DNA of 64,000 bases from Candidatus Omnitrophota bacterium (GCA_903908245.1 CAIVRE010000030.1:11857-75856); one strand, 5' to 3'; counted from the stretch's first letter, positions 774 to 40,465 are shown. Notes: generated by a model not told the origin, from the sequence alone. A program made the numbers and translations.

Positions 774-1727
774 TCAACCACGGGGCAAGACCTGCTCTAT
801 CGCGTGAAAATAATCATTTCCCCATTCCCTGGCTTTCCAGTCCAGACACCTGGAACAATAGCTGACCTCGCCAAACTTGCGCGCCATATGCAATTCACGC
901 AGATGCTTATACGCTTCCGATCGCCAAACCTCTGCAATACCCTTCTGATTAATATCCCCGACGACCGTTTCATCCATCCAGTCTTCCACACAAAACTCCG
1001 CAAACCCATCCACATTAATAAAAATACGTTTCCAAAGCAGCGGACAGGGCCACCGGTCCCCGTCAGTGCTGATCTTTAATTTCGCCTGATCCAGAACACC
1101 CCCGATCGTCGTGAACGGACGGACCAGCACCCGGTCCACCTTCCGGCGCCAGTGATCCACAAACGCCCGCAACTCGCCCTCGGATTCCTTCTGATCGATG
1201 ATACTGACAAATATCTTTGTCCGCGCCCCCTTGCGGTCCCTCATCTCGATGAACCGGTGTACATTGGCCATGACCAGATCAAAATCACTGCCCACCCTGA
1301 TCTTCTCATAAGTGGATCTGTTTAAAGCATCCAGGCTGATCTCCACAACCTCAACCCCGATATCCAGGACCCTCCCGGCGATCTCCTGCGAAAGCCTGGT
1401 GCCATTGGTAATAAAATTGACAGGGGAAACTTTCTTATCTTTCGCGTAGCTCAGCATATCCAGGAACCGCGGATGCATCATCGGCTCTCCGTCACAAAGA
1501 AGCCTGAAAAGCACTCCCGGATAAAGCGCGACCTCATCCACGATCTTTTGATAAAGAGCCCAACTCATATGACGCGGACTATAATCAGGCTTTTTGGAAA
1601 CAGCCGTATACGGGCAATGAATACACGACAAGTTGCATACATTGGTGATCTCCATCACCACCATCGCGGGAAATTCCCTTGCCCGCTGATCCGAAAATCC
1701 GAACTTCTGCATAGGAATTCCCTTCAT
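774..1727 (-). CDS. radical SAM/SPASM-domain protein
   Basis: ITNVCNLSCIHCPYT (Cx3Cx2C); C-terminal Cys-rich SPASM/twitch-like region (CPLLW...FCVEDW...YCSRCLDW). Start chosen at MKGIP to avoid overlapping the upstream DegT gene. Confidence 0.8.
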   Translation of the reverse strand: MKGIPMQKFGFSDQRAREFPAMVVMEITNVCNLSCIHCPYTAVSKKPDYSPRHMSWALYQKIVDEVALYPGVLFRLLCDGEPMMHPRFLDMLSYAKDKKVSPVNFITNGTRLSQEIAGRVLDIGVEVVEISLDALNRSTYEKIRVGSDFDLVMANVHRFIEMRDRKGARTKIFVSIIDQKESEGELRAFVDHWRRKVDRVLVRPFTTIGGVLDQAKLKISTDGDRWPCPLLWKRIFINVDGFAEFCVEDWMDETVVGDINQKGIAEVWRSEAYKHLRELHMARKFGEVSYCSRCLDWKAREWGNDYFHAIEQVLPRG

Positions 1728-1740
1728 CTGCGCGATCTTA

Positions 1741-2802
1741 TCAGCAAGCCGCGGCCCTGACGGCCTCAATGATCCGAAGCACCTGTTGCTTGTTCAGCGA
1801 AGGGTAGATAGGGACGGAAAGCACTGACCGCATGATCATTTCCGTCACGGGAAAGTCCTTGCCCGGCAACCGAAGATACTGGTGGATCGACAGCGGCTTG
1901 ATCGTCTGCTTGACTTTCACCCCGTGCGCATAACACTGCCGCATAAAAGAATGAATATCTCCTTTAACCCTGATCATGAACCGGTGAAAAATATGCTTTC
2001 CTCCTGCCGAAGAATATGGAAGCGCGATATCCAGGTCCGAAAAGGCATCACGATAGATCGACGCGATCTTCACCCTTGCCTGGATAAACCCCTTTAATTG
2101 TTTTAACTGGGCCCTGCCAATGGCCGCCTGAAGATCCGTCATTCGATAAGTATATTTAACTCCGACATCCGACGAATCCGGCTCTTTCAATTTTCTTAGC
2201 CTCTCCAGCAACAAAGCCGAGTTGGCCACAACCATTCCGCCTTCTCCGGCAACGATATATTTTGTGCCTTGAAAAGAAAAAACCGCACAATCCCCCCAGC
2301 TGCCCACCGGCCTGCCCTTGTATTCTGCGCCGATAGAATGCGCACAATCCTCGATCACGGGGACACCCAGGGCCTTGAACCGGTCGATCTCGGCCGGACA
2401 GCCGAACATATGGGCCACGATCACGGCTTTTGTCCTGCGGGTCAATTTCTTCTTCGCCTGGGCAAAGGACAGGTTAAAATCATGCTCATCCACATCACAA
2501 ACGACAGGCACGGCACCGCAATAAGCCACCGCGTTAAGCAAAGACCGGCAGGCATAACTCGGCAAGAGCACCTCGGATCCCCGCTCCACACCCAACGCGA
2601 CCAGCGCCAGATGCAACGCGAGGGTCCCCGTGCTTGTTGCAACCGCGCCCAGGCATCCCACGCGATCCGTCACGGCCTCCTCGAACGTTTTAACAAAACG
2701 GCCTTCCGCAAGGAACCTGGTCCTCAAAACCGCGGCCACAGCCTCTTTTTCAGCCCTGCCGATGGTCGGCATGGAATGCTCGATGAACTGCTTTCTTTTC
2801 AC
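1741..2802 (-). CDS. DegT/DnrJ/EryC1/StrS-family PLP-dependent sugar aminotransferase
   Basis: Family-typical N-terminus and FSFQGTKYIVAGEGG lysine motif; 4-nt overlap with the downstream gene. Confidence 0.85.
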   Translation of the reverse strand: MKRKQFIEHSMPTIGRAEKEAVAAVLRTRFLAEGRFVKTFEEAVTDRVGCLGAVATSTGTLALHLALVALGVERGSEVLLPSYACRSLLNAVAYCGAVPVVCDVDEHDFNLSFAQAKKKLTRRTKAVIVAHMFGCPAEIDRFKALGVPVIEDCAHSIGAEYKGRPVGSWGDCAVFSFQGTKYIVAGEGGMVVANSALLLERLRKLKEPDSSDVGVKYTYRMTDLQAAIGRAQLKQLKGFIQARVKIASIYRDAFSDLDIALPYSSAGGKHIFHRFMIRVKGDIHSFMRQCYAHGVKVKQTIKPLSIHQYLRLPGKDFPVTEMIMRSVLSVPIYPSLNKQQVLRIIEAVRAAAC

Positions 2803-4897: not shown

Positions 4898-6193
4898 TCA
4901 TTGGGACAGGACCGGTCTTTTTTTAAAAACTTCTTTGAGTATAGTATTGGCCATATTCTCGGCCAGCAGGCGGTTGCCTTTATCTGTACAATGGCCAAAG
5001 TCATAACCGAACGAATCACGGAAATATTCCCGGTAGCTGCCCTTCTCAAGCGCCGCTTTAAATATCTTTTCGTTATCCACGAAAACAACGCCTTCTGCCT
5101 TGCCTTGAAAGATCTTCTTTAACGGTCCCAAATTGCGAATGGGATACTGCGCACAGACATATACTATGCCTCTTTTATGCAGGATCGTCCGGAGTTTAAG
5201 ATAATTATTATTTGTCATTGGACAATAGTAACCTGCTCTTAATTCCCTGGCCTTCTTGCCGTATCTGCCCGCAAGCACCGAATTACCCTTTTCTATATTT
5301 AATACTTCCAATGCTCCGTATGTCATGTCATCTTTTGGATTGAGTTCTATTGCCCTCTTGAATGCCTCTTCCGCCTCGGCAAATTTATTCTGGTTCAGAT
5401 AAGAAACTCCCAGCTCAACATACGCCCAATCATTTTTAGGATCATGCCCTATTGTCCTCCTGAACAGCTCCTCCGCCTCGGCAAATCTCATCTGCCGCCG
5501 GTAAGAAACTCCCAGCTCAATAGGCGCCCTGGCATCTTTGGGATCAAGTTCAATGGCCCTCCTGAATAACTCATCCGCTTCAGAAAATTTACCCTGGCGT
5601 CGATAGAAAACTCCCAGCTCGACATCCGACCCATTGTTCTTTGAGTTGAGATCTAAAGGCCTGCCCTGGTTTGGAGAAGGAACTTCCTCCCTGTGAACAT
5701 CTTCTTTCTTCAGCTTCTTGAGGATATGCGTGTATATGAGCCGGCTGAACCTGTATGCCCGGCAGTGCCGAAATAGCCAGCCATCAGCCTCGGGTATGTC
5801 CTGATAATACATTATCCCGCCATCATTACACCCCATCATTGTTACCACTATATCAGGCTTATACTTGTCAAGATTCGCCTCTAATTGCGATAATATCACT
5901 CCTGTATCAATGCCGATCAATCCCCTGTCGATAACACTGAATTTAACGCCAACATTCCGCTGGTTAAGCACCTCCTCAAGAAACCGCGGGTATTGGTTCA
6001 GGGTGGTCGACTCTCCCAGGCACATGATGCGGCAAGAGCCTTTCTCTTTGATGGCTTGCAGGTTCTTATATTCCTGCAGGGATAACATTATAAAACCGCC
6101 CAGGCGCAAACCTGTCTCAAGGATCAAGGCAGCCAGGAACAATCCGCAAAATATGACGGCAAGTCTTTGATGTTTATAGAATTCAACCTTCAT
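4898..6193 (-). CDS. membrane-anchored SGNH/GDSL-family hydrolase with inserted TPR repeats (paralog 1 of 3)
   Basis: N-terminal TM helix; SGNH blocks GESTT (I), GCND (III), DFGHCT (V); ~5 TPR-like repeats (ELFRRAIELDPKDA...) between blocks III and V. Confidence 0.75.
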   Translation of the reverse strand: MKVEFYKHQRLAVIFCGLFLAALILETGLRLGGFIMLSLQEYKNLQAIKEKGSCRIMCLGESTTLNQYPRFLEEVLNQRNVGVKFSVIDRGLIGIDTGVILSQLEANLDKYKPDIVVTMMGCNDGGIMYYQDIPEADGWLFRHCRAYRFSRLIYTHILKKLKKEDVHREEVPSPNQGRPLDLNSKNNGSDVELGVFYRRQGKFSEADELFRRAIELDPKDARAPIELGVSYRRQMRFAEAEELFRRTIGHDPKNDWAYVELGVSYLNQNKFAEAEEAFKRAIELNPKDDMTYGALEVLNIEKGNSVLAGRYGKKARELRAGYYCPMTNNNYLKLRTILHKRGIVYVCAQYPIRNLGPLKKIFQGKAEGVVFVDNEKIFKAALEKGSYREYFRDSFGYDFGHCTDKGNRLLAENMANTILKEVFKKRPVLSQ

Positions 6194-6194
6194 G
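6171..6194. repeat. second copy of the 24-nt start-codon repeat (see 4845-4868)
   Basis: Exact identity; gives the SGNH-TPR gene the same MKVEFYKH N-terminus as the DegT gene. Confidence 0.8.
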
Positions 6195-7052
6195 CCTCTC
6201 CGCCCTCATAACCGATGAACCGCTCTTCCACATATGATTATTAAAAAAGAACCAGTAAATGCCCCTGATCAATTCGTAAGGAAAAGAAACAATATGCACC
6301 AACACCTGCCGCCCGAAACGATCATTCTTGGTGATCATCCAATACCTGTTCCGGATACATAAATACTGCCGGATATCCCGGCCTGTCTGTGAACCATTGC
6401 CCGTATGTGTGCACGTGATCCGAGGGCAGAATAATACCGCCCAGCCAGCCAGCCTGGCCCGCCAGGCGAGATCCACATCCTCGACAAGAAAGAAGAACCT
6501 TTCATCAAAATACCCCGTTACCTCTTTAAGCTTCTCCAGCATCTTTCGCCTGTAAAAAGCCGCCGCACTGCAAGGGCCGATGATCTTCCCTTCCGCCGGA
6601 ATAGCCATCACCTTCTTCCGTCCGCGATTAAGATCATGGAACCTTCTCAAGAACGTCAGGTCGATCCCATGGGAATAAACCGTCTCGCCATCCTCGTTCA
6701 ATATATCGGCCTGAACCATTCCGATGTTATCCGCAAATGAAAAACTGGCCGAAATGAACTGCCGGATAAAATCATCACCGATCACCACATCACTGTCCAG
6801 CGTCAGGACCCAATCCCCGGATGAAGCCGCTATCCCCTGGTTCCTGGCCCTGCAAGCGCCCTCATTCCCTGAATTCTCTATCAATCGGACTTGCCTGTAA
6901 TTCTCCTTGAGAATACGAAGGGTCGCGTCTTTCGAGCCATTATCAACAACAATGACCTCAACACCCTCGTCCCCCTGGCGAAACACAGCATCCAGGCACG
7001 ACTGAACATGTTCCTGGCTATTGAACGTAACAATGATTATTGACAGCCGCAT
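6183..7052 (-). CDS. family 2 glycosyltransferase
   Basis: MRLSIIIVTFNSQEHVQSCLDAV...VIVVDNGSKD; DxD-type motifs. Confidence 0.85.
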   Translation of the reverse strand: MRLSIIIVTFNSQEHVQSCLDAVFRQGDEGVEVIVVDNGSKDATLRILKENYRQVRLIENSGNEGACRARNQGIAASSGDWVLTLDSDVVIGDDFIRQFISASFSFADNIGMVQADILNEDGETVYSHGIDLTFLRRFHDLNRGRKKVMAIPAEGKIIGPCSAAAFYRRKMLEKLKEVTGYFDERFFFLVEDVDLAWRARLAGWAVLFCPRITCTHTGNGSQTGRDIRQYLCIRNRYWMITKNDRFGRQVLVHIVSFPYELIRGIYWFFFNNHMWKSGSSVMRAERHEG

Positions 7053-8407
7053 TTGCCCTTGAAAATTTGATAAAGAGTTGGCTTGATGCTTTCCAGGTCA
7101 TCAATGCTTAAATCCATGGTCCTGACAATGAACTTCTCATTGCCATCATAATCATCCCAATCAACGGAACCCAACCAGCCCTTGCCCTGGGCATACCGAA
7201 AATATTCCGTTCCCGGGTACGGCGTGGCAAACGTGAACTGCAGCGAATCAGGATCCATTTCTCTGGCAAAATCGATGGTGCTTTGCATCGTTTGCCGGGT
7301 TTCTCCAGGAAGGCCGATGCAAAATGTTAAATGAACTTTTATTCCCAGCCGCTTCGTGACCCCTATCACTGCCCTGGCTTTATCCAGGTCCAGGCTTTTC
7401 TTGCACTGGCTGCGAATATCCTGATCTGCCGATTCAATGCCATATTTCACGGCATATGCGCCGGCACGAGCCATGGTCTCCAGCAATTCTTCATCCATCA
7501 GATCCACTCGCGTCATCGCCGCCCAAGGGACATGAAGACCTCTCCTGATGATCTCTTCACAGATCTTTACAACGTACCCTCGATCACAATTAAAAACCTC
7601 GTCGTCAAAATAAACCGCTTTAAAATCAAACTGCCGGACAAGATGCTCCATCTCATCCACCACATCCATGAAATCCCTTTTCCTGTACCCGTTGCCTTTA
7701 TAAAGAGTCTGCGGCAAAAGACAAAAGGAACACTGGAATGGACATCCCCGGCTGGCCAACATCTGGACACTGGGACATGGCAGCCCCGCGAATCCGTCAT
7801 TGTACTTATAGATCAGGGGCACAAGCCTTTCCGGCCAGGGCAAAACATCCAGATCGTCAACAGATCCCCGCCGGTCGCTCAAAACAACCCCGCCCCCTTC
7901 GCGATATGCCAATCCGGCCACAGGCCTCAAATCCCTGCCGCCCTCAAGGGCATTAACCAGATCAAGGGCTACCTGTTCATATTCTCCGACGATAACATAA
8001 TCGATGCTCTCATGCTCTTTGAGGATCTCGGCAGCGAATTCCCCGGCATGCGCGCCGCACAGGCCGATCTTGATGCCTTTAAGGCTTTGCCGAATGGCCG
8101 CAATGATCCTCATATCATTCTTGAAAGACGGCGTGGATGTTTCAACCAGAACAAGCCCCGGATCAAAGCCGGCGATCTCCTCGATACAGGCAGCCTCCGA
8201 CATTTCGCCGGCGATCGCGTCGACCAGTTTCACGCCCTTGCCTTCTTTTTTCAATAACGCCGCCGTATAAGCGAGGAAGAACGGGAACGGGATATAATGA
8301 ATATGCCCGTCCCGTTCAGGTTTCGACGTAAACGGCCAGCGCGACCCCGCCCTGACCCCGAAGCGCCCGTCTTTAAACCATGGAAGATTGACCAGGACCG
8401 TTCTCAT
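7037..8407 (-). CDS. B12-binding-domain radical SAM protein (class B, putative C-methyltransferase)
   Basis: N-terminal cobalamin-binding Rossmann-like region, then ASRGCPFQCSFC (Cx3Cx2C). Start set at MRTVLVNLPW (ATG 8405-8407) abutting the upstream stop. Confidence 0.8.
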   Translation of the reverse strand: MRTVLVNLPWFKDGRFGVRAGSRWPFTSKPERDGHIHYIPFPFFLAYTAALLKKEGKGVKLVDAIAGEMSEAACIEEIAGFDPGLVLVETSTPSFKNDMRIIAAIRQSLKGIKIGLCGAHAGEFAAEILKEHESIDYVIVGEYEQVALDLVNALEGGRDLRPVAGLAYREGGGVVLSDRRGSVDDLDVLPWPERLVPLIYKYNDGFAGLPCPSVQMLASRGCPFQCSFCLLPQTLYKGNGYRKRDFMDVVDEMEHLVRQFDFKAVYFDDEVFNCDRGYVVKICEEIIRRGLHVPWAAMTRVDLMDEELLETMARAGAYAVKYGIESADQDIRSQCKKSLDLDKARAVIGVTKRLGIKVHLTFCIGLPGETRQTMQSTIDFAREMDPDSLQFTFATPYPGTEYFRYAQGKGWLGSVDWDDYDGNEKFIVRTMDLSIDDLESIKPTLYQIFKGKCGCQ

Positions 8408-12050: not shown

Positions 12051-12068
12051 CACCACCCCCTCGATCGG

Positions 12069-13440: not shown

Positions 13441-14844
13441 TTATGTTTGCCGGACAACAGAATATTCTTTATTGCCCTTCTGATCGATCTCTTCGAGCAT
13501 CTTCAAACGCCTGTTGCGCACTTCAATGGTGTTCTGCCCGTCAAGCGAACGCCACAACCCGAGATGATACCCGTCAAGCACGATCCCGAATTCCTCTTTA
13601 TGCTTTTCCAGATAAGAGAACTGATTGATCGTGAGCGTGCTGAAGGTGTTGCGCTTGATCTGCCCGGCGTACCTGGCGATGAACGCCGCCGTCTGCATGA
13701 AATCGTCATCATTCTCGCCGGGAAAACCGACGACCCAATTGACCACGATATCGATCCCGGCCTCACGGCATAAACCGATGAACCTCTCTGCTTCCTCGAT
13801 CGTAAACCCCTTGCGCATCAGGCCCAAAACCTTGTTCGAGGCGCTTTCTATCCCCAGATTAAAATATCGGCATCCGGCTTGCCGGATCTTCTTGAGGACC
13901 TCGATGTCGATCCTTTTATCTATCCTGAAATTACCGCCCCACGCAACATTAAGCCGACGCTTGACCATCAGGTCACACAGCCGAAGCAAATTGGGCAGAT
14001 TGCCGTTGATCAGCGAATCATTGAATGCAAATGAAGTATTGCGATACTTCCGTTTAATGAGCTCCATCTCTTTAATGATATTCCCGGCGCTCCTGAACCG
14101 GTACGGGCTCCAGAATTTCGTATCCGTGCAGAAAACACACTGCATGACACACCCCCGGCTGGTAAGAATGGGGAATTCCGTCCAATCGGTATACGCGCTG
14201 AGGTCATAAACACTGAAATCCGGATAAGGCAGGCTGTCAAGGTCCATGATCGCCGGCGCAAGACCGTTAAAGACCCATTTGTCCCCCCGGGGAAGAAGAA
14301 CGCCCTCGCAGCCTTCCAGGGATTTTTTGGCTTTAAGCCGCGCGAGCACATTGACCAGGGTCCTCTCTCCTTCTCCGACAATGACGATATCCGCGAACGC
14401 CTGCAGGCCATACGGCAATATCCAGTCGGCGTCATTCCCGCTAAGATTGTAGCAATTAGGCCCCCCCAGAAGGATCTTGATGCCCGGACACCGGCTCTTT
14501 ATTCTTTTAACGATATTAAGCGTGAATAACGCCGACGTGTTCTGGACGGAAAACCCGATGATGTCAGGACGGACCGCCAGGATATGCCCGATACACTTGT
14601 CATAAGTGGCTTCATTGATGAAAGGCAGCTGATAAAAACTGTCCTCCAGGTACCAGCGATACCCGTTATTACTGTCCCAACAGATCTTCTGGTCATCCGC
14701 CGCCTGTTTGTAGAGCATAATGCTCAGGTCGATGACATGCGCGCGATACCCCGCCTTCTTAAGCGTTGAATAAAGATACGCCAGGGCCAAAGGCGGCATT
14801 CCGACACCGAAAGAACAAGGGGCTTGAACCAGCGCAATTTTCAT
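13441..14844 (-). CDS. B12-binding-domain radical SAM protein
   Basis: MKIALVQAPCSFGVGMPPLALAYLYS (B12-binding fold), then TSRGCVMQCVFC. Start set at MKIALV, where ATG overlaps the upstream TGA (ATGA). Confidence 0.8.
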   Translation of the reverse strand: MKIALVQAPCSFGVGMPPLALAYLYSTLKKAGYRAHVIDLSIMLYKQAADDQKICWDSNNGYRWYLEDSFYQLPFINEATYDKCIGHILAVRPDIIGFSVQNTSALFTLNIVKRIKSRCPGIKILLGGPNCYNLSGNDADWILPYGLQAFADIVIVGEGERTLVNVLARLKAKKSLEGCEGVLLPRGDKWVFNGLAPAIMDLDSLPYPDFSVYDLSAYTDWTEFPILTSRGCVMQCVFCTDTKFWSPYRFRSAGNIIKEMELIKRKYRNTSFAFNDSLINGNLPNLLRLCDLMVKRRLNVAWGGNFRIDKRIDIEVLKKIRQAGCRYFNLGIESASNKVLGLMRKGFTIEEAERFIGLCREAGIDIVVNWVVGFPGENDDDFMQTAAFIARYAGQIKRNTFSTLTINQFSYLEKHKEEFGIVLDGYHLGLWRSLDGQNTIEVRNRRLKMLEEIDQKGNKEYSVVRQT

Positions 14845-16262
14845 CAGGACTGGACCTCGCATTGATAATGGCCATGCAACTCTCTGGCCAGGGCCCGGAA
14901 CCGCTGCAACCGGCCCTGCCTTATCTCCGGCGTGCTGACGGGGCTGCACCAGCCGTGATCTTCACGGATAATGCCGTATTTTTCAAGATTTCGCCCCAGA
15001 AAAGAATTTTCCTCGATATGACATCCCGTGACCTGGTCGAAACGGTGAATAAAGCGCGCATTCTGCCGGATAAAATCCAGGGTCATCTCGAAATCCTCTT
15101 CCGTTTCCGTCGGGTACCCGATGAGAAAGAAACAATTCGCTTCGATCCCCGCCAGAGACGTTTCCCGGATGATCCTTCTGGCATCATCCAGGTCCATATT
15201 CTTGCGCATATCCGAAAGAACACGCGGAGAACCGCTCTCAACACCATACGCCAGGCTGCCGCATCCGGCGGCCCGCATTTTTGTCAATAACCCGAGGCCC
15301 ATCCCCGGATGAAATGCGACTTTCGCGGACCATTGGATCTTAAGGCCGGACCCTGTGATAAGATCGCATATCTCTTCCACCCGCCGGATATCCCCGTTAA
15401 AAAGCGAATCCGCGAACTCGAATTCAGTGATCTCATATGTCTGGACCAGGGCTTTAAGGTCATTCACGACTTTGAGCGCAGAGCATGCGCGGTATGTTTT
15501 CCAGAGAGGGCTATCCGCGCAAAAAGTGCACCGGTTCACACAGCCCCGGCTTGAAACCACAGGCAATGACTTGCGGACATAACGGCCGACCTCAAAATCG
15601 CTGTAGTCCGGAACACCCAGCGCATCGAGGTCCCTGATCATGGCCCTGGGCTTGTTCTCCACCATCACCCCGTCGCGCCGGTATATGATGCCGTCGGCCT
15701 TCTGCCAATCCCCGCCCTGCCGCTTCAACATGACGAGCTCGCGCAACGTTTCCTCGCCCTCTCCGACAACAAAAATATCAAAGATCCCTCCCACGAATGC
15801 CTCGGACCTGAGGGCAGCGAACCTGGTCATCTTGTCGAGCAGAACCTGCTTAAAGCGCGTCACTTCCGCCCCGCCGGCGATCAGGACCAGGTCCGGCCTT
15901 TTGAGTTTCAAATGTTGCGCCAGGATAATGCTGACATTAAGGCTCGACATGAACAACGAGAACCCGACCATTCCCGGATCGTGGCTCAGGATCCTGTCCG
16001 CCCATTGCTCGATAAACGGTATTAAGGAAGGAACAATATTTTTCTCAAAAAGAGGCAAATCCGTAAAATCATCCGGATGATTCAGGTCCCAGTATTGATT
16101 CTTTGGCATGGCCTTGTAAAGGTCAAAACTGAGGTCGAAACATTTGGCGCGCACGCCGGCCCCGTTCAAATATCCTTTTAAATAACCGAGACCGACAGGA
16201 GGCTGCACAACGCCCCACGCAGGACACATCACCAATGCCAGGTCCGTCTTTTCCATCCTCAA
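14844..16262 (-). CDS. B12-binding-domain radical SAM protein
   Basis: LALVMCPAWGVVQPPVGLGYLKGYL..., SSRGCVNRCTFC. Confidence 0.8.
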   Translation of the reverse strand: MRMEKTDLALVMCPAWGVVQPPVGLGYLKGYLNGAGVRAKCFDLSFDLYKAMPKNQYWDLNHPDDFTDLPLFEKNIVPSLIPFIEQWADRILSHDPGMVGFSLFMSSLNVSIILAQHLKLKRPDLVLIAGGAEVTRFKQVLLDKMTRFAALRSEAFVGGIFDIFVVGEGEETLRELVMLKRQGGDWQKADGIIYRRDGVMVENKPRAMIRDLDALGVPDYSDFEVGRYVRKSLPVVSSRGCVNRCTFCADSPLWKTYRACSALKVVNDLKALVQTYEITEFEFADSLFNGDIRRVEEICDLITGSGLKIQWSAKVAFHPGMGLGLLTKMRAAGCGSLAYGVESGSPRVLSDMRKNMDLDDARRIIRETSLAGIEANCFFLIGYPTETEEDFEMTLDFIRQNARFIHRFDQVTGCHIEENSFLGRNLEKYGIIREDHGWCSPVSTPEIRQGRLQRFRALARELHGHYQCEVQS

Positions 16263-16274: not shown

Positions 16275-17393
16275 CTACTTGAACAATTCACTTTTCTGCC
16301 GCTCCGCAACGATCACATCAAAATCATCCCGATAAGAACACCACTGCAGGCAGGGCTTGTCGCACTTGCGGATCAACTTGCGCAAAACTCTCGCCCTGCC
16401 GGAATACCAGAGGCTCCTTAAACTGTCGCGCTTGACATCCCCGAAAGTCGCCTCATGCTCGGGCTGTTTAACGCAAAAATACACCTTCCCCTCCTGGACG
16501 ATCTGAATACGGTTGAACCCCGCGTAACAATTCATCTTTTCGGCCCCGGACCGTCCCCGAAGATACTTCTTGATGGACTCCAGATTCTGAAGGCTGTTCG
16601 CGATAAAATCGAAATTGTCCGCGCTGGACTTCTTGTATTGGATGATCGCGTTGATCGCATTATCCAGGACCTGGAACCTTTCAGGCTTCACGAACACATC
16701 CGAACCGGCGTCCGCCTTTGCCTGGTCCGTGTTATCCCCGACAACAGGCTGGAAGATGATCTTGCCTATCTTCAATTGCCGGCAAAGCTCGATCACCCCC
16801 GTCAATTCCTCCAGGTTCTGGTCCATGATCGTGCATACACAGCAGATCGAAGGGATATTTTCCTTCCGTTGCTCTTTCATTTCATTGATCAAATTGATAT
16901 TGGCAATGATCTTGGCCAGATACTTCTGCCCCCGGATCCTGGCAAAAGACTCCTCGGAAGAGGCATCAATGGAAACGCTCAGGCTGCTCAAACGGGACTT
17001 GAACATTTCCTCCACGAGCTTCTCCGACATAATGGTGCCATTGGTGACCACCGTTATCGATGTGATCCCGCAGCTCACGCCGTAAGCCACCAGCTCGAAC
17101 AACCGCGGCTCCAGGAACGGCTCGCCCCCGATCAGGATCAGGGACCTGACCTTCATGTCCGCGCCCTCTCTAATAAGTTTCTTTATCGTATCAATATCCA
17201 GATCGACCGGACGGTTGAGCGCCTTATTGGACTCCATCCGTTCGTGCATACTGCACATCTTGCATCTCAAATTGCAATTGAACGTAAAGTTGATCTGCAA
17301 GGCATCCGCGGGAACAAGGGGATGATCGATCTTCCGGGAAAGCCAGAACAAGAAATTCCTTACAAGCAATCGAATGAACCTGTTGTTATCCAT
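16275..17393 (-). CDS. radical SAM/SPASM-domain protein
   Basis: FNCNLRCKMC cluster; C-terminal Cys-rich SPASM-like region (CYAGF...FCVKQ...CDKPCLQWCSY). Confidence 0.8.
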   Translation of the reverse strand: MDNNRFIRLLVRNFLFWLSRKIDHPLVPADALQINFTFNCNLRCKMCSMHERMESNKALNRPVDLDIDTIKKLIREGADMKVRSLILIGGEPFLEPRLFELVAYGVSCGITSITVVTNGTIMSEKLVEEMFKSRLSSLSVSIDASSEESFARIRGQKYLAKIIANINLINEMKEQRKENIPSICCVCTIMDQNLEELTGVIELCRQLKIGKIIFQPVVGDNTDQAKADAGSDVFVKPERFQVLDNAINAIIQYKKSSADNFDFIANSLQNLESIKKYLRGRSGAEKMNCYAGFNRIQIVQEGKVYFCVKQPEHEATFGDVKRDSLRSLWYSGRARVLRKLIRKCDKPCLQWCSYRDDFDVIVAERQKSELFK

Positions 17394-17434: not shown

Positions 17435-20158
17435 TTATCCCTGAACAACGATCCTTGCCATAAAAGCGACCTTTTCCTGCGGCCGGAGCGTTTTCAGTTC
17501 TTTTTCAAGATACTGCAGGACCCTGCCGCGATGGTAAAGATCCGAATTCACAACATTCATGATCGTGGTGACACTCGGGCCGCAAGGCAATATGCTGACA
17601 TCCGGCAACCCCTCCGGGCCCGAGATGCCGGCCGATACGGTCATAGATCCCCCGGGAACATCTTCCGTATTAACGCCCGAATGAACAACTTCCCAATCTT
17701 CATCAATATTGGCCTTGAACGGAGGCAAAACCCCGCTCACGCCATTGACGGAGAACTTGTCGTATCTTTCCGAGAGCATAACATTGGTCTGAATGCGATC
17801 AAGCTCGATCTCTTCAGCCGCGACCATCCAGGCGCGCAATTCGATCCGATCCCTGTCGAGCAATTTGATCTCCCAATACTGGCTCAACGGTAACCGCAGC
17901 CAATGGCCTTGAGCAACGATCGTATGCTCATCCATACGCTCGACTCTCCAGGCTGCCGTTAAACCGGAAGAATGCCACCTTCCCCTGCATCGCAAAGCAG
18001 TATAGACGCCAAGATTCTTCGTCAACTCTTTGCCTTTCCAAAAAAGCTGCCCCCGGCCCTGGTCAAAACAACAACTCAATTCACCCCGCTCAACCCTGCC
18101 GACAATTTTTTCATTGGCGACAATGTTTTTCCTGCCGAAAGAAGCCTCGACATTAAAACAGGCATATTCCCCGGGCTTGATCCTGCTCCCGCTCTCGCTC
18201 TCGACCTTCCAGACGCGGATCTCACGGGATCGGGAAAAAATATCGGAATTAAAGACCTTTACAAAATTATCCAGGCCATCCGCCCCCCTGAGCACCACGG
18301 CAGGGACATCATTGATCCGGCTGAACATCCCGACTTCAGACTGCCGGACACACCCGTGAAGGACATCAACCTCATACTCGAGAAAATCAGCCGAAAAATC
18401 CTTCTCAAGAGGGCCGCAGAACCATGATGTGTATCCTTTGACAAATACCCAGTTGAGCAAATGCTGTTCAATGGAGACTTCTTCACTGACCTCTATAAAA
18501 ACTTTAAACCGGAACGCATCTTCCCCGGCCGCCTCGATCTCCCAGACCTGGATAACCGGCAGATCCGGCCAGGACACCTTGATGATCATTTTATCATCGG
18601 AGACCTTTTCAACCGTCCATTGCGCAAACGTAGACAAATACCTTCGTCCGCCAACGTAAACAGAAGACACAACGGAATTCAACGCCACCGGGACAGGCCC
18701 CCGGCGAACAATATCGCATCGCCCGTTATTAAAGATCAGATTCACCGTTTTAAGCGATACGGTATAACCTGCCCGCAAGCCGTCCAGATATTGCTCCAGG
18801 TCCGGGACATTCAAAAGGAACTTGCCCGAAAACCAGTGCGAATGGTCCGTTTGCGGCATATTATGCTGCGCGCCGGATATCCTGTATTGCAGGACCCTTG
18901 AATCAACGATAGAGTCGGCATTCAATATCTGGGCCCTGCACTGATCATCCCGGCATTCCAGGATCAATCCAGGCAATCCCGCGTCATCGGGCCCCGAAGG
19001 CATCACGCCCATGCATTGATGGGGAATATTCTTTTCAATGAACGACTGCCAGTCCTTGCTGTTCTGGTCAATGGGCGGGAAATGCCCTTTCTCGGAAGGA
19101 GTGAACCAGTCGGCATACTCCTTCTGCAATAAGATATTAATATATCCTTCCTGAATATCCAAAGCCTCATCCGCCTCGACCGCCACGTCCCATTTCAACC
19201 CGTGATCTTCGGTGATCTCTATTTTCCAGACCAGGGTCAACGCCAGCTGATATATTCTTCCCCGGGCCACGAACCGTGTTTCGCCCTCTTTCTGCACTTC
19301 CCAATCCGCCTGAAAAGAATTGTAATTCCTGCCTTCGATCTGAAACCGGGTATATCCCCCGGAATTCGACGTGACCGGCCTGTCGTTCCAATTAAAGAAT
19401 ATCCGGCCGTTATTAAAAATAACCGAAAGAGGGCCTTTAGCCAACACTGCGACTTTCTCCCTGGCGCCGATCATCTGCGTGTAAAAAGGGATGACTTTCT
19501 CGGCCAGGCCGTCTTTCATTATCCTTCCGTCTTTAACAAGAATGACCCTTTGGCAAAGCCTGCGCAGCATATTCATGTCATGCGTCACACAAATGATCGT
19601 CGTGCCGGAATCTTTAAGCTCAAATATCCTTTTAATACACTTCTTTTGAAAGAACTCATCCCCCACGGCGAGAATATCGTCGATAACCAGGATCTCGGGC
19701 TCAACATGGATCGCGGCGGAGAACGCCAGGCGTACGAACATGCCCTGGGAATAGCATTTTACCGGAGCGTCGATGAACCGGCCGATATCGGCAAAATGGA
19801 TGATCCGCTCCACGATCTCCGCCTGCCTGGCCTGATCGATGCCGGACAAATTCAAATTAAGATATACATTCTCCCGTCCGGTCAATTCCGGCTGGAAGCC
19901 GGCCCCCATTTCCAGAAGCCCTGCCACTCTTCCGGCAACCCTGGCTTCTCCCCGGTCCGGCTTCAAAAGCCCTGCAATGACCTTCAGGAGCGTTGTCTTG
20001 CCGGCCCCGTTCTCTCCGATGATCCCCAGTGTTTCACCGGCCTCGATCTGGAAACTGATCCCTTTCAAGGCCCAGAAATTCTCCCAGGAAACCTTGCCGC
20101 CGACAACGAACTTGATCCGGTAAATTTCCCAGACATCCTTCAGATCTACAATAGCCAT
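17435..20158 (-). CDS. wzt: Wzt/TagH-like polysaccharide-export ABC ATP-binding protein (907 aa) with long C-terminal extension holding three tandem ~200-aa repeats
   Basis: Walker A GENGAGKTT, ABC signature YSQGM, Walker B ILVIDD in first ~240 aa. Repeats start IFNNGRIFFNWNDRPV / LIFNNGRCDIVRRGPV / QLFWKGKELTKNLGV, with conserved W..E.....G.W..LP..Q.WEI positions. Confidence 0.85.
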   Translation of the reverse strand: MAIVDLKDVWEIYRIKFVVGGKVSWENFWALKGISFQIEAGETLGIIGENGAGKTTLLKVIAGLLKPDRGEARVAGRVAGLLEMGAGFQPELTGRENVYLNLNLSGIDQARQAEIVERIIHFADIGRFIDAPVKCYSQGMFVRLAFSAAIHVEPEILVIDDILAVGDEFFQKKCIKRIFELKDSGTTIICVTHDMNMLRRLCQRVILVKDGRIMKDGLAEKVIPFYTQMIGAREKVAVLAKGPLSVIFNNGRIFFNWNDRPVTSNSGGYTRFQIEGRNYNSFQADWEVQKEGETRFVARGRIYQLALTLVWKIEITEDHGLKWDVAVEADEALDIQEGYINILLQKEYADWFTPSEKGHFPPIDQNSKDWQSFIEKNIPHQCMGVMPSGPDDAGLPGLILECRDDQCRAQILNADSIVDSRVLQYRISGAQHNMPQTDHSHWFSGKFLLNVPDLEQYLDGLRAGYTVSLKTVNLIFNNGRCDIVRRGPVPVALNSVVSSVYVGGRRYLSTFAQWTVEKVSDDKMIIKVSWPDLPVIQVWEIEAAGEDAFRFKVFIEVSEEVSIEQHLLNWVFVKGYTSWFCGPLEKDFSADFLEYEVDVLHGCVRQSEVGMFSRINDVPAVVLRGADGLDNFVKVFNSDIFSRSREIRVWKVESESGSRIKPGEYACFNVEASFGRKNIVANEKIVGRVERGELSCCFDQGRGQLFWKGKELTKNLGVYTALRCRGRWHSSGLTAAWRVERMDEHTIVAQGHWLRLPLSQYWEIKLLDRDRIELRAWMVAAEEIELDRIQTNVMLSERYDKFSVNGVSGVLPPFKANIDEDWEVVHSGVNTEDVPGGSMTVSAGISGPEGLPDVSILPCGPSVTTIMNVVNSDLYHRGRVLQYLEKELKTLRPQEKVAFMARIVVQG

Positions 20159-25575: not shown

Positions 25576-27486
25576 TTAATCACAAAAACACGGCAGCAAA
25601 CACGGCCAGTGGCATTTCCTGGCCGCCGCCCTGGCCTTGACGATCTGAGGCCCCATCATGATCTCTTTAAGCGTTTGCTTGCGAATATCCCCGTAAGCTG
25701 AAAAACAGGTGGTGCACATCCCCTGGTTGGAGACCAGGATCGTTTTCTCTCCCGAATGGCACTGGACATCATCGCAGGTCAAACTGCCGCGGTAATATTT
25801 CTTCATCAGCTCAAGATTCCGGGCCGAGTTCTTTATAAATCCGGGGGCTTCTTCTTTCAACTTTTTAAGCTGATCAAGGGAATTATCCAACAAAGAAAAC
25901 CTTTCTTCCTTGACCCAGAACGGAGAATGCTTCCTTTCCGCCATCATCAGATTGTTGGGCAGCAAAGCCTGGAATTGCAGGGAATTGGCCCCCAGCGACC
26001 TGACAAAATCCACCAGCGCGGCCAACTCTTCCAGGTTCTCATTAAAGATGATCGTGATCAGATTGAAATTCACCTGCGGATGCTTCCTCTTGAGCGCCGA
26101 AAGCGCCTGCAGCCCCTGGACCGTTTCCTGCCAGGCTGTATCGGAATTCCTGACATGATTATGCGTCTTTGCCTGCAAGGAATCCAGCGAAACGACCGGA
26201 GCAATGGTGCCGTCCAGTAAATATGGCTCCAACCGGTCCATATATTTATTGATCAATATGCCATTGGACAGGATCCCCAAGTTCTTGATCCCGATCGACC
26301 GGGCGTGATCCATGATCTCAAAAATATCTTTTCTTAATAAAACCTCGCCGCCGGATAAAGCGATCTCCGCAAAGCCCGACTCTTTCCCCTGGGACAGCAT
26401 GCTCCTGACACTGTCCAGATCCATATCTTTCTCATCCCGGGACGTTTTCCAGATATCGCAGATCCGGCAGCTTAAATTACAGGCATGCGTGATGTCCAAT
26501 ATCAGCAGGTTCGGACGGTCCGCCTTTTGCGGCCGCTCCTTTTGTATCAGATCAGCGCCGGCCCTGAAAAATTCCACGATATTGCCCGCGATATAAAAAA
26601 CCTTGTGCAACGCAAAAAGAGCGAATACAGCCGCTTTCTTTAAAGGGTGCCTGATCTTGTGTTCATGGATCAGCGCCGTCCCAAGCCTGCAGCTGAACCA
26701 GGGGATCTTAAGGCTATTGATCAATGTCGCTGCCCAGAACTCCAGCGTCCCTGTCCTCAATTCCTTGAGCAAAGGATGATCACGGTGTAAATACGCGACA
26801 AGATAATTCCCCCTGCCGTATTTATACGCCTGGTCCGCACAGCTGCGCAGCGTGTCCTCGCGATAATGGGTCACGCGGATGTCTTTGTTCCAAATGAACC
26901 TGTGCCCTTTCTTATAAAGCCGCCAGGACAGCTCCAGGTCTTCACCGCCGGGCAACGGAAAATCCTCGTTGAATCCTTCCGCTGCCAGAACATGCCGTTT
27001 GAACGAAACATTGCATGTAGGAAAAAATATCGTCTCCCGGCTCCCCTTGATCTCCGTCTCAATGCTGCCATTGGCCAGGAACTGCCCCAGGAGCACCGGC
27101 GCTCTGTCGGTAGCCGTCACCGTTAATCCGCCGATCGCGGCGATACCGGGATTCTCTTCATGCGCGCGCGCCATGGACCCCGCCCAATCGGCCGCGGCGA
27201 CACAATCATCGTCGATAAAACAGATGACCCCTCCCCGGGAATGTTTGATCCCAAGGTTCCTCGCGACCGCGGGGCCCTGATGATCCTGGGTGAGGCACTT
27301 AAGATTCGCATGCCCGATCCTTAACTGATCGACCAGGCTGTTTGTCGCGGGACTGCCGCCATCATTGACCACCACGATCTCTATCGCGTCCTGAGGATGA
27401 TCCTGGGCAAACAGCGAAGCCAGGCACCGGGCCAGCATTGCATCCCGGCCGCGCGTAGGAATAATGACGGAAACCTGAACACTCAT
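25576..27486 (-). CDS. bifunctional fusion: N-terminal GT2 glycosyltransferase (~310 aa) + C-terminal radical SAM/SPASM domain (~320 aa)
   Basis: N-terminus VSVIIPTRGRDAML...VVVNDGGS...FIDDDC (GT2). From ~aa 320: ILDITHACNLSCRICD (Cx3Cx2C), LSGGEVLLRKD, C-terminal CDDVQC...CTTCF...CHWPCLLPCFC. One uninterrupted 636-aa ORF. Confidence 0.8.
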   Translation of the reverse strand: MSVQVSVIIPTRGRDAMLARCLASLFAQDHPQDAIEIVVVNDGGSPATNSLVDQLRIGHANLKCLTQDHQGPAVARNLGIKHSRGGVICFIDDDCVAAADWAGSMARAHEENPGIAAIGGLTVTATDRAPVLLGQFLANGSIETEIKGSRETIFFPTCNVSFKRHVLAAEGFNEDFPLPGGEDLELSWRLYKKGHRFIWNKDIRVTHYREDTLRSCADQAYKYGRGNYLVAYLHRDHPLLKELRTGTLEFWAATLINSLKIPWFSCRLGTALIHEHKIRHPLKKAAVFALFALHKVFYIAGNIVEFFRAGADLIQKERPQKADRPNLLILDITHACNLSCRICDIWKTSRDEKDMDLDSVRSMLSQGKESGFAEIALSGGEVLLRKDIFEIMDHARSIGIKNLGILSNGILINKYMDRLEPYLLDGTIAPVVSLDSLQAKTHNHVRNSDTAWQETVQGLQALSALKRKHPQVNFNLITIIFNENLEELAALVDFVRSLGANSLQFQALLPNNLMMAERKHSPFWVKEERFSLLDNSLDQLKKLKEEAPGFIKNSARNLELMKKYYRGSLTCDDVQCHSGEKTILVSNQGMCTTCFSAYGDIRKQTLKEIMMGPQIVKARAAARKCHWPCLLPCFCD

Positions 27487-27503: not shown

Positions 27504-28283
27504 TCAGATCTTCTTTAAAATACCGGGTTCGAATTTAATGAATATCGCCAGACCCAGGGACAAACTGGCCATCGCGAATAACACGACCTGAATGAATACC
27601 GCCGGCCCCGGCAGCACCCCTTCGAAAATGATCTTTTGATAGAAAGCGATATACGGCGTCAGCGGATTGACGTTGTATATCCAATGGAACTGCGCGGGGA
27701 CCATTGCCATCGAATAAAAAACAGGGGTGACCCAGAACCAGAACATCAGTACCACGCTTAAAAGATGCTCAATATCCCGAAAAATAATATTGAGAACAGA
27801 TAACGCCAGGCAGAGACCCGCCGTTAAACAAAGAAGCAGGACAAAGATCAGCGGGAGCAGCCAGGCCAGAATAATGATCTTTGGATTAAAGAACAGGAAG
27901 ATCGGGTACATCACGACCCAACCGATAAGAAAATTAAGGAAATTCGCGATGACCGATGCCAGCGGAAAGATCACAACAGGGACATTGTATTGCCGCATAA
28001 TGCCCTGTCGATTCAATATGGAAGCGGGCGCCTCGGACAATGCGTTCGAAAAGAACATCCACGGGATAATGCCTGACAGGACAAAGAACGGATAATTGGC
28101 AATGCCGGCCTTAAAGACCTGGGTAAAAACAAAAGCGATCGCGGACATGATCAAAAGAGGATTGATGACCGCCCAGAAGATCCCCAAAAGAGAGCCGGCA
28201 TACCGGCTCCTCAATTGCGCGATCGACAGGCTCCACAACGCATGTCGAAAATAAAAAATGTTTTTAACCAAACCTTTATCCAT
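27504..28283 (-). CDS. wzm: ABC-2-type polysaccharide-export permease (Wzm/KpsM/TagG-like)
   Basis: 259-aa polytopic membrane protein with the ABC-2 pattern (FWAVINPLLIMSAIAFVF...). Confidence 0.8.
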   Translation of the reverse strand: MDKGLVKNIFYFRHALWSLSIAQLRSRYAGSLLGIFWAVINPLLIMSAIAFVFTQVFKAGIANYPFFVLSGIIPWMFFSNALSEAPASILNRQGIMRQYNVPVVIFPLASVIANFLNFLIGWVVMYPIFLFFNPKIIILAWLLPLIFVLLLCLTAGLCLALSVLNIIFRDIEHLLSVVLMFWFWVTPVFYSMAMVPAQFHWIYNVNPLTPYIAFYQKIIFEGVLPGPAVFIQVVLFAMASLSLGLAIFIKFEPGILKKI

Positions 28284-29577
28284 GGGCCAACCGCTCCCCG
28301 GTCTTTATCCCGTCGAGGATCGCATCTTCCATCGACATATAACGCCAGCTCCCGTAGCGCCCGCAAGTCAGGACCCGATGCGCCTGGAGGAACTTGAGGA
28401 TCTCCCCCCGCGCCGCCGCATAACCCTTGTCATACACAGGATAAGCGTACTCAATATCATTGATGTCGCGAACAAGCACCGCATCGCCCGCTGACAGCAA
28501 TCCGACTTTCTCCAGGTCCTGTTCAATGCGCGCAACGATCCCGGCCTTATCCAGCGGTTTCTGCCTGGAATACGAAACCTCCGCGTACAAAGAGCTTTTC
28601 CCCGCCGGAACAAGATCGGACGAGAAATTATGATAAAACCCCACCCGAAAAAAGCTGATATCTTTCTGTGGAAAATAGGCCCAATGTTTCTTGCTCGGAC
28701 AGGCCTGCCGCAACCCGAGGTTCAAATTGAACAGGGAGTTCCAGCGCAAACGGCCGAACGCGGCCTTGATCCCCCTGGGCAGGCCGCTGATCATGCCGGA
28801 CAATTCCGGCAGGGGGATCGTCGAGACCAAATGAGCGTAATCCTGCTTCACGCCATTGGAAAACTCGACCCGCTGCTTCTTCAGGTCGATCGTCCGGACC
28901 TTAAACCCCGTATGGATATTATCCAGGCCCGCCTTTAACGCCCGGGGAAGCGCTTCGATCCCGCCTTTGCGGGGATACCAGAAATGCGCGTTATAACCCA
29001 AAGGCTCCTGCCGGCCCGGACCGCCGGACACCTGGCGCAGCGTGGGTTGAGGCACAAACCCTTCCGTCCAGGCGCACGTCATCATCCTTGGAGAGACCGT
29101 CCAGAACTTCGTGTTATACGGGACCATAAAATGCTTCGCGATCCCGTCCCCAAACGTCCCCTTGATCCAGCGCGCAAGGTCCGCACCCGCCTTTACACGC
29201 GAACCCCGGCGCGCCTTGATAAAACCGTCAAGGCACTCTTTCCGGACATTGTCCGGCAACGCCGAAAGATTGGCCTGAAAAGGATACCCGATGAACCGCT
29301 CATGCGAATAGACCCAAGCGCTTCTCTGATGCCCCGCCAGGCCTTCTTTCAGCAATCCATTGACCAGGCCCAAAGACCCTTTATGCCTGAAATGGAGCAA
29401 ATGTCCGTCGATATCAAACGTGAACCCTTTGGCCTTCCTTGACCGGCACAACCCCCCGACCTCAGGTTCTTTTTCATAAACATGGCACGCCTGCCCCTGC
29501 CCCTGCCCCTGCAGATGCCTGGCCGCGCTCAGGCCCGCCAGCCCCGCGCCAAGGATAACATACCCCTTATCTGTCAT
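28276..29577 (-). CDS. FAD/NAD(P)-binding oxidoreductase, UDP-galactopyranose-mutase-like
   Basis: N-terminal Rossmann GxGxxG (VILGAGLAGLSAA), EKEPEVGG; resemblance to Glf/amine-oxidase folds. Precise function uncertain. Confidence 0.5.
   Translation of the reverse strand: MTDKGYVILGAGLAGLSAARHLQGQGQGQACHVYEKEPEVGGLCRSRKAKGFTFDIDGHLLHFRHKGSLGLVNGLLKEGLAGHQRSAWVYSHERFIGYPFQANLSALPDNVRKECLDGFIKARRGSRVKAGADLARWIKGTFGDGIAKHFMVPYNTKFWTVSPRMMTCAWTEGFVPQPTLRQVSGGPGRQEPLGYNAHFWYPRKGGIEALPRALKAGLDNIHTGFKVRTIDLKKQRVEFSNGVKQDYAHLVSTIPLPELSGMISGLPRGIKAAFGRLRWNSLFNLNLGLRQACPSKKHWAYFPQKDISFFRVGFYHNFSSDLVPAGKSSLYAEVSYSRQKPLDKAGIVARIEQDLEKVGLLSAGDAVLVRDINDIEYAYPVYDKGYAAARGEILKFLQAHRVLTCGRYGSWRYMSMEDAILDGIKTGERLAHG
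29491..29512. repeat. hexanucleotide microsatellite (ctgccc)x3.5 encoding GQGQGQ in the oxidoreductase
   Basis: Seen directly: ctgcccctgcccctgcccctgc. Confidence 0.7.
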
Positions 29578-37132: not shown

Positions 37133-37160
37133 ATATTAATTAACCGTTTCACCCCGGGAA

Positions 37161-37187
37161 CCTCCTTCACCCCCGGGGTGAAGGAGG
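37161..37187 (-). promoter_or_regulatory. near-perfect 27-nt GC-rich palindrome (12-bp stem) right after the dnaK stop codon
   Basis: cctccttcacccccggggtgaaggagg is almost its own reverse complement; lies between dnaK stop (37188) and dnaJ start (37132); no U-tract follows. Confidence 0.55.
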
Positions 37188-40452: not shown

Positions 40453-40465
40453 ACAAACATCCTTT

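Follow-up and report, generated by a model that had tools for sequence, protein, structure and literature searches.

What chemistry could three B12-type radical S-adenosylmethionine (SAM) enzymes perform within a cell-envelope gene cluster of a bacterium from an uncultivated phylum? The question is raised by a 64,000-nucleotide (nt) stretch of Candidatus Omnitrophota DNA (GCA_903908245.1 CAIVRE010000030.1:11857-75856), referred to below as the window, in which two adjoining genes, here called C and B, and a separate third gene, A, each encode a radical SAM domain preceded by a domain of the B12-binding type. The B12-type radical SAM superfamily is large and mostly uncharacterised, and to our knowledge its sugar-modifying members come almost only from antibiotic pathways; the Omnitrophota are ultra-small, possibly host-dependent bacteria.

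On balance, we lean towards the reading that A, B and C are three different, conserved tailoring enzymes of one radical-SAM-rich, ABC-transporter-dependent pathway for an O-antigen-like glycan. The substrates would be sugar residues of a nucleotide- or lipid-linked glycan, as is suggested by a gene in which glycosyltransferase family 2 (GT2) and radical SAM domains are fused and by the GT2 genes that flank or overlap A. In the proposed scheme, C and B would be made together through stop/start coupling and would catalyze two successive radical steps (or act as a complex), these steps being cobalamin-dependent C-methylations or some other cobalamin-assisted rearrangement. A would abstract a hydrogen atom from an amino-sugar, with rearrangement or dehydration to follow, maybe without cobalamin; two DegT aminotransferases encoded in the same gene array could supply the amino-sugar residue.

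The C/B pair and the separate gene A

All three genes lie on the minus strand. Gene A (7037..8407) encodes a radical SAM protein of 456 amino acids (aa) that resembles HpnJ and AprD4 and carries a Rossmann (B12-binding-type) domain at its N-terminus, and genes B (13441..14844; 467 aa) and C (14844..16262) encode proteins of B12-binding-type plus radical SAM architecture. Gene C can be read from an ATG at 16256 (470 aa) or from a TTG at 16262 (472 aa); the ATG, in agreement with public gene calls, is probably the start. For A and B the longest mechanical open reading frames (ORFs) overshoot, to 8566 and 14949, respectively, and the ATG starts proposed in an earlier, first-pass annotation of the window agree with the length and N-termini of all orthologues.

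The Pfam Radical_SAM model (PF04055, gathering score 29.5 bits) matches A, B and C with 64.6, 83.9 and 55.7 bits, and the B12-binding model (PF02310, gathering score 32.1 bits) with 40.1, 42.3 and 32.8 bits, the value for C being marginal over the threshold; in each protein the B12-binding domain is N-terminal to Radical_SAM. Exactly one CX3CX2C motif is found in each: CPFQCSFC at residue 222 of A, CVMQCVFC at residue 232 of B, and CVNRCTFC at residue 239 of C. None of the three contains a DxHxxG motif, which is expected for this class and hence uninformative (PMC12931638). Since the ORFs are long, the curated-domain E-values range from 1e-8 to 1e-23 and homologues number in the hundreds, A, B and C are not chance features. 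The first-pass annotation, which described two adjacent genes and one separate gene of the class-B radical SAM type, each with an N-terminal cobalamin-binding-like domain and a CxxxCxxC motif, is borne out in these respects.

Across the C/B junction (14842..14858, minus strand) the coding strand reads ...GAG GTC CAG TCC TGA|TG AAA..., where a GAGG at 14858-14855 is followed by a 10-nt spacer and TGATG, so that the C stop (TGA, 14846-14844) and the B start (ATG, 14844-14842) overlap by 1 nt. Translational coupling had been proposed for this site on the basis of an ATGA stop/start overlap at 14842-14846; the coupling stands, and the 4-nt ATGA gives way to the 1-nt TGATG overlap. The orthologous locus L005 carries the identical TGATGAAA junction with GAGG 10 nt upstream, and the junction stretch GAGGTnCAGnCnTGATGAAA is identical there as well, so C/B coupling is conserved among close orthologues. 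Distant loci are found without it, with a 342-nt gap in L089 and three intervening genes in L006. As a further measure, the longest-contig size of 16 of the 25 B-orthologue clusters (longest contig at least 5 kb) matches that of a C-orthologue cluster, which is a proxy for B/C co-occurrence.

As judged by sequence comparison, A, B and C are paralogues at the superfamily level only and represent three separate conserved orthogroups, each with a sharply defined lower limit. B and C share 30% identity (E 1e-66), and A shares about 28% with either. The B orthogroup (P0001-P0038) holds 37 further clusters at 51-74% identity, the next matches being at 43% or below; the C orthogroup (P0241-P0314) holds about 70 clusters at 50-72%, followed by a group at 40-44% and then by matches at 35% or below; and the A orthogroup has more than 120 clusters at 52-72%, the best 119 of 4399 matches (E <= 1e-10) all lying in that range. 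Named members of the three orthogroups are almost always Candidatus Omnitrophota/Omnitrophica, mostly metagenome-assembled genomes (MAGs). In a neighbour-joining tree of 126 sequences, the B and C orthologues are each monophyletic and are not sisters, their common ancestor spanning 51 leaves, with A as a distant outgroup to both. The designation "three paralogs" in the first-pass annotation is thus correct at the superfamily level and incorrect if recent paralogues are meant. A recent tandem duplication of B and C was considered and ruled out on account of their 30% identity and of the closer non-orthologous relatives that each of them has.

It could be argued that one or more of the three genes are decaying or non-functional copies, since a carbamoyltransferase gene adjacent to them is split by a frame change, and since the A protein of the window reads CLLPQ (CSFCLLPQT) where the A family and HpnJ read CLWPQ, with Leu for the conserved Trp. 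However, none of the three ORFs is interrupted or shortened when compared with its orthologues, all keep the cluster cysteines and the family-invariant residues, and identical A, B and C proteins occur on 6-13 independent metagenome contigs. We consider decay to be most improbable.

Families, folds and candidate chemistry

None of the three proteins reaches an NCBIfam model at its curated cut-off. A scores highest against HpnJ (TIGR03471; 262.2 bits, E 9e-78, full length; cut-off 577.6 bits), followed by BchE (TIGR02026; 180.1 bits; cut-off 481.35), ApyD (NF050148; 148 bits; cut-off 750) and AprD4 (NF033070; 142.4 bits; cut-off 500). The best matches of B are TIGR03975 (160.2 bits; cut-off 281.85), ApyD (149.7), BchE (137.1) and PhpK (128), and those of C are ApyD (159.6), TIGR03975 (138.6), HpnJ (108) and BchE (105.5). 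A, B and C all score under the methylase cut-offs of PhpK, HpnR, KedN5, the TsrM family, the MgmA family and TIGR03975, and none of them belongs to BchE by the TIGR02026 cut-off.

When species-representative genomes were searched with the A-family alignment, 585 relatives were found, in three tiers: Omnitrophota MAGs at 53-58% identity; a taxonomically mixed tier at 38-47% with Desulfobacter, Planctomycetota, archaeal MAGs and the cultured Psychromonas sp. SA13A; and a tier at 31-35%, mostly Acidobacteriota, which is true HpnJ (696 bits in L058 and 732 bits in L041). The Omnitrophota A orthologue in locus L009 gives 286 bits with the HpnJ profile. Since A of the window scores 262 bits and true HpnJ 696-732 bits, A is, by profile comparison, a member of a sister family of HpnJ and not HpnJ itself.

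Structural models cover A and B; the domain assignment of C comes from the Pfam score. The AlphaFold2 models of A (predicted local distance difference test, pLDDT, 94.0; predicted template-modeling score, pTM, 0.93) and B (pLDDT 94.5, pTM 0.91) both have an N-terminal alternating beta/alpha domain. In Foldseek searches the B model matches TsrM, MgmA, CysS, AprD4, OxsB and TokK over the full length (E 3e-23 to 6e-16, TMq 0.59-0.72) at 16-19% identity, with no relative clearly closest, and the B-family profile is closest to OxsB (E 8e-27, across the B12 and radical SAM domains). For A the top Foldseek match is AprD4 (6fd2; E 7e-29, TM 0.78/0.78, 25% identity, whole length), which is also its best solved-structure match by sequence (E 1e-33), and the A model matches further solved B12-type radical SAM structures full-length. 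The general fold of cobalamin-dependent radical SAM enzymes is present in B, as modeled, and, judged by its Pfam domains, probably in C. In proposing the B12-binding domains, the first-pass annotation had named the absence of a recognisable fold as the finding that would count against them; such a fold is recognisable, by PF02310 and, for A and B, by AlphaFold2 and Foldseek.

Does this fold imply the cofactor, and the cofactor methylation? AprD4 and ArsL have a B12-type fold and bind no cobalamin (PMC12931638), so the fold in A, B and C is no proof of cobalamin binding. For TokK and CysS, the pocket is marked by a lower-axial Trp within SCYVW and by a second Trp two residues past the third cluster Cys (PMC12931638). 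In profile alignments, the corresponding positions read GFSVQNTS and FCTDT in B, and GFSLFMSS and FCADS in C: Gln/Thr and Phe/Ser replace the lower-axial Trp, and Asp replaces the Trp after the third Cys. The missing Trp residues argue weakly against a TokK/CysS-type methylase activity of B and C, as far as aligned residues can tell, and would be compatible with methylation of the Mmp10 or MgmA kind.

These observations bear on a more uniform alternative, in which all three proteins are cobalamin-dependent C-methyltransferases of the GenK/Fom3/TokK type, each adding a distinct C-methyl group to glycan sugars. All three have PF02310 together with PF04055, C-methylation is by far the most frequent of the functions characterised in the superfamily (PMC12931638), B matches the cobalamin-bound TsrM, MgmA, CysS and TokK structures full-length, and the operon extends into further Zn_ribbon_HMPTM-type radical SAM genes that are methylase-like. 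But the nearest relatives of A, HpnJ and AprD4, are non-methylases, the latter working without cobalamin (PMC12931638), no methylase family cut-off is reached by A, B or C, and B and C lack both TokK/CysS Trp positions. We regard this alternative as unlikely.

For A in particular, the nearest characterised relatives act on amino-sugars without methylation. HpnJ is proposed to contract bacteriohopanetetrol (BHT)-glucosamine to a cyclitol ether, as inferred from a knockout only (PMC13459092, PMC9204698), and AprD4 carries out the 1,2-diol dehydration of paromamine, without cobalamin (PMC12931638). By analogy with these two enzymes A most likely does not methylate, and even its use of B12 is doubtful. 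For B and C, C-methylation is possible; it is the expectation that the superfamily brings with it, and the present evidence does not tell it apart from other radical chemistry. According to a 2026 review, non-methylating members are indistinguishable from methylases by sequence (PMC12931638). Of the several distinct C-methylations or other B12-radical reactions on the glycan that the first-pass annotation suggested, C-methylation is therefore retained as a possibility for B and C and is doubtful for A, with its HpnJ-like profile and AprD4-like fold.

The probable glycan operon and its conserved modules

The three genes belong to a row of 27 minus-strand genes that runs from 31709 to 774 with gaps of at most 55 nt and many overlaps. 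The components expected of an O-antigen-type locus are found together here: a WecA/MraY-family polyprenyl-phosphate sugar-phosphate transferase for initiation (29567..30553; Glycos_transf_4, 106 bits), a Wzm-like ABC-2 permease (27504..28283; Pfam ABC2_membrane), a Wzt-like ABC ATPase (17435..20158; ABC_tran), glycosyltransferases, and a Wzy_C/WaaL-family O-antigen ligase-like membrane protein (31757..32923; PF04932, 64 bits), whose gene is the only plus-strand gene of the glycan cluster. The glycan setting that had been claimed for the genes is supported by these components and by GT1 and GT2 enzymes, DegT aminotransferases, a WbuX-like amidotransferase and a carbamoyltransferase. From its gene content the locus looks like an ABC-transporter-dependent O-antigen-type pathway on a chromosome; a plasmid or phage origin was ruled out by the housekeeping flanks (hrcA-grpE-dnaK-dnaJ, clpB, miaA, glyA, pur).

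Two modules recur in independent Omnitrophota loci. Module 1 has the order radical SAM – radical SAM/SPASM – GT2 – small ORF – A – GT2(–GT2) and was found in L005, L007, L009, L010, L011 and the ERZ1426815 contig. In the window its members are the GT2 gene directly following A (6183..7052), which shares its first 16 nt with the end of A, a 139-aa membrane/coiled-coil ORF directly upstream of A (8409-8828), and the upstream GT2 gene, GT2b (8818-10173), both GT2 assignments being from Pfam. The order GT2 – small ORF – A is shared by L005, L007, L010 and ERZ1426815, while L009 and L011 have GT2b–A with no small ORF detected. The radical SAM and radical SAM/SPASM pair (24377-25552 and 23215-24408; Pfam, CX3CX2C motifs) lies directly upstream of GT2b–A in L005, L007, L009, L010 and L011 and is displaced in the window.

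Module 2 has the order Wzm – Wzt – GT2::radical SAM – radical SAM/SPASM – C – B in L005 and ERZ1426815 and is rearranged in the window; in L006 the genes are present but B is displaced and Wzt is not adjacent, and the version in L089 is looser. The GT2::radical SAM fusion (25576..27486; 636 aa) has Glycos_transf_2 at residues 6-157 and Radical_SAM at residues 332-495, and is conserved in at least four other loci (L005, L006, ERZ1426815 and L089), always near Wzm/Wzt; it ties radical chemistry to a step of glycosyl transfer. A radical SAM/SPASM gene (16275..17393; PF04055 and PF13186) is located directly upstream of C, as it is in L005, L006 and ERZ1426815. The Wzt-like ATPase has 907 aa, and its NCBIfam matches to TagH and Wzt-RfbE-like models are below the cut-offs. 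Its C-terminal extension of about 650 aa (17435-19408) is unusually large and has no Pfam match, and L005 and ERZ1426815 encode proteins of nearly the same length (906-912 aa); recognition of the terminal modification of the glycan is the role of the Wzt C-terminal domain in other systems.

In counting a set of three, the first-pass annotation identified a genuine trio and undercounted the radical SAM genes around it. The window contains eight complete CX3CX2C radical SAM genes and one truncated gene, the ninth, of which the window edge leaves the N-terminal 248 aa (1..746, minus strand; Zn ribbon CPVC...CPRH, CNMSCPIC). The same genes are present on a 500,543-bp public contig (ENA ERZ1426827), on which the operon runs past the left edge of the window: the ninth gene is complete there (448 aa; Zn_ribbon_HMPTM and Radical_SAM by Pfam), and six more radical SAM genes follow, four of the Zn_ribbon_HMPTM type, one MiaB-like (UPF0004) and one a fourth B12-binding type (497 aa), which brings the operon on the source contig to at least 14 radical SAM genes, with a further DegT aminotransferase. 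Similar accumulations were seen elsewhere. In L007 (ENA ERZ23498930 scaffold_10, 93056-114417), at least 13 radical SAM genes, of which six encode a B12-binding domain, are packed into 21 kb around the A orthologue, and in L033 a 19-kb stretch contains nine ORFs for A-like, B12-type radical SAM proteins. In the cultured gammaproteobacterium Psychromonas sp. SA13A (L032; NZ_WTKU01000006.1, 182612-200657), two A-like genes (about 615 aa, 37-39% identity) lie in a polysaccharide cluster with GT2, UDP-galactopyranose mutase, RmlB/RmlD-like and LuxC/LuxE-like acyl-activating genes, and a glycosyltransferase-like gene comes after each of the two. The Omnitrophota locus L089 contains, at 2556-3425, a YdjC-family (HpnK-like) deacetylase gene, along with an asparagine-synthase-like gene, among its radical SAM and GT2 genes.

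The remaining members of the array are as follows. A radical SAM/SPASM gene (774..1769, minus strand; Pfam; CNLSCIHC motif) is followed upstream by two DegT aminotransferase genes flanking an ORF without a family match, which lie between it and the third of three paralogous TPR/GDSL-like proteins (minus strand; 4898-6193, 20207-21685 and 21721-23208). The latter combine an N-terminal GDSL/SGNH-like hydrolase domain with C-terminal TPR repeats and may act on the glycan as esterases or O-acyl transferases. A frame change near 10815-10840 divides the carbamoyltransferase gene on the minus strand into two ORFs, one N-terminal (10813-11865) and one C-terminal (10215-10781); the split is also present on public contigs of the same population, and that in L005 differs (170 aa and 421 aa). 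It may reflect a pseudogene, a sequencing-independent frameshift or a genuine two-part enzyme. Upstream of it are two small membrane ORFs (11889-12299, minus strand; 76 aa, and 55 aa with a weak DUF5989 match), which resemble the SxtJ/SxtK-like small proteins beside the carbamoyltransferase in L005. The WbuX-like amidotransferase gene lies between B and the carbamoyltransferase region, and GT1 and amine-oxidase-like flavoprotein genes (Pfam/NCBIfam) complete the minus-strand array.

Beyond the WaaL-like ligase are a GT2 gene and two epimerase/dehydratase genes, and the region from about 36 to 64 kb contains housekeeping genes (dnaJ, dnaK, grpE, hrcA, clpB, hsp20, miaA, glyA and pur genes). The heat-shock block that adjoins the glycan cluster (35996-44977, minus strand) comprises hrcA, grpE, dnaK, dnaJ, a MORN-repeat protein gene, clpB and two hsp20 genes, and a plus-strand ORF overlapping clpB and the MORN gene (40528-42906) is probably spurious. 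Apart from the ligase gene, nearly all genes of the window are on the minus strand, and the GC skew is negative throughout. Rfam models, the cobalamin riboswitch included, gave no match in the window, ARAGORN found no tRNA, and promoter/terminator consensus scans over the 6-18 kb region gave intragenic matches only, which were not used.

With this context in place, two further alternatives can be weighed. First, B, C and the SPASM enzymes could mature a ribosomally made peptide or protein by C-methylation and crosslinking of the RiPP type, with the glycosyltransferases decorating the peptide or being unrelated to it. The best NCBIfam matches of B and C, the RiPP radical SAM C-methyltransferase family TIGR03975 (160 and 139 bits) and ApyD (150 and 160 bits), and the four SPASM/twitch-type radical SAM genes point in this direction, but the scores are far under the 282- and 750-bit cut-offs, no conserved precursor-like small ORF lies beside B/C (the only small ORFs, which are SxtJ/DUF5989-like, accompany the carbamoyltransferase), genes for a peptidase or for leader recognition are absent, and the conserved neighbours are Wzm, Wzt and the GT2::radical SAM fusion. 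Peptide maturation thus appears very unlikely.

Second, the enzymes could modify a membrane glycolipid head group, in the manner of HpnJ with hopanoid glucosamine and of calditol synthase (Cds) with archaeal lipids, and not a polymeric O-antigen. Such a role would fit the place of A in a sister family of HpnJ, the co-occurrence of a YdjC/HpnK-family deacetylase and a GT2 in L089, and the fact that lipid-bound hexoses are the substrates of both HpnJ and Cds (PMC13459092). On the other hand, the window has neither shc/hpnH nor YdjC, its WecA-like initiator, Wzm/Wzt exporter and WaaL-like ligase are typical of polymer export and ligation, and reports of HpnJ proper are confined to genomes that also encode SHC and HpnH (PMC12324291). 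No hopanoid gene (shc, hpnH, hpnI or hpnK/YdjC) is among the Pfam/NCBIfam matches of the window genes. We judge a glycolipid substrate quite improbable.

The tailoring of an exported O-antigen-like glycan remains the reading that we prefer, and several observations weigh against it. SPASM enzymes are typical of peptide maturation, and the best profile matches of B and C are to RiPP-type radical SAM families (TIGR03975 and ApyD). By tblastn, no YdjC/HpnK-type deacetylase is encoded in the window, whereas several true-HpnJ loci do match, and this weakens a strict analogy with the HpnI/K/J pathway; HpnI is likewise absent from the NCBIfam matches of the two GT2s flanking A. The A protein of the window has Leu in place of the family and HpnJ Trp in CLWPQ. 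Gene and Rfam scans found no cobalamin biosynthesis or uptake gene and no riboswitch within the 64-kb window, cobalamin biosynthesis is present in less than 75% of Omnitrophota genomes (PMC10066038), and cobalamin binding is not readable from sequence (PMC12931638).

Significance and relation to known systems

The architecture of these proteins and their general role, radical SAM tailoring of sugars, are already known. None of the orthogroups of A, B and C has a characterised member or reaches a family threshold, and three conserved unnamed subfamilies are found in a Wzm/Wzt O-antigen-type operon together with at least six, probably 11, further radical SAM genes. We found no account of this cassette in the literature on radical SAM enzymes with O-antigen, Wzt or Omnitrophota, nor any report of a Wzm/Wzt operon that is conserved across Omnitrophota and contains 9 to at least 14 radical SAM genes.

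Should the enzymes act on the glycan, unusual sugars, for example C-branched, deoxy or carbocyclic ones, must be present in its final form; such sugars could be relevant to attachment to hosts or to resistance against phages, and could be used as biomarkers. Family A, being HpnJ-like, would offer a route to sugar ring-contraction or dehydration chemistry outside hopanoid producers, for which Psychromonas sp. SA13A, cultured and with A-like genes, is a possible experimental entry point. A bolder proposal, which we advance as speculative and consider rather unlikely, is that the sugars of an O-antigen-type polymer of Omnitrophota are rebuilt by an unprecedented radical SAM battery, in steps including: (i) a hopanoid-independent, HpnJ-type contraction of a hexosamine to a carbocyclic cyclitol by A, and (ii) radical C-alkylations or rearrangements by B, C, the fourth B12-type enzyme and the Zn-ribbon class-D-like and MiaB-like enzymes. 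If true, the glycan would belong to a new class of radical-tailored cell-envelope glycans that characterises an entire uncultivated phylum. We regard the locus, entirely by inference, as a good lead for new sugar chemistry.

Compared with known systems, A most resembles HpnJ and AprD4. It is 31-35% identical to true HpnJ and has the GVRAGSRWP and PFPFFLAY motifs in common with it near the N-terminus, the A-family consensus contains CxFCLWPQ, and A adjoins GT2 genes as hpnJ adjoins hpnI; however, A scores under half of the 577.6-bit cut-off and is found in an exported-polymer context, whereas HpnJ is found in a hopanoid context. AprD4, the top match of A by both fold and sequence, is likewise an amino-sugar-modifying enzyme with a Rossmann N-domain, but its cluster motif is CX3CX3C (C-PYP-C-RFY-C) where A has the canonical CX3CX2C, and A falls short of AprD4 family membership (142.4 bits against a cut-off of 500).

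B and C resemble the solved class-I enzymes TsrM (6wte), MgmA/QCMT (9ccb), CysS (9n1b), TokK (7kdx) and OxsB (5ul2), both of whose domains are covered by the B model, and have the Rossmann GEGE and GG motifs; they differ in being shorter, without extra C- or N-terminal domains, and, relative to TokK and CysS, in lacking the two cobalamin-flanking Trp residues. From TIGR03975 and ApyD they are separated by length (about 600-645 aa for the named families and about 470 aa for B/C), by scores far below the cut-offs, and by a glycan context without a precursor peptide gene. Although GenK, GenD1, Fom3 and MoeK5 belong to secondary-metabolite clusters and not to Wzm/Wzt O-antigen-type operons, they are, when compared by description, alike in superfamily architecture and in the tailoring of sugars or other small polar substrates.

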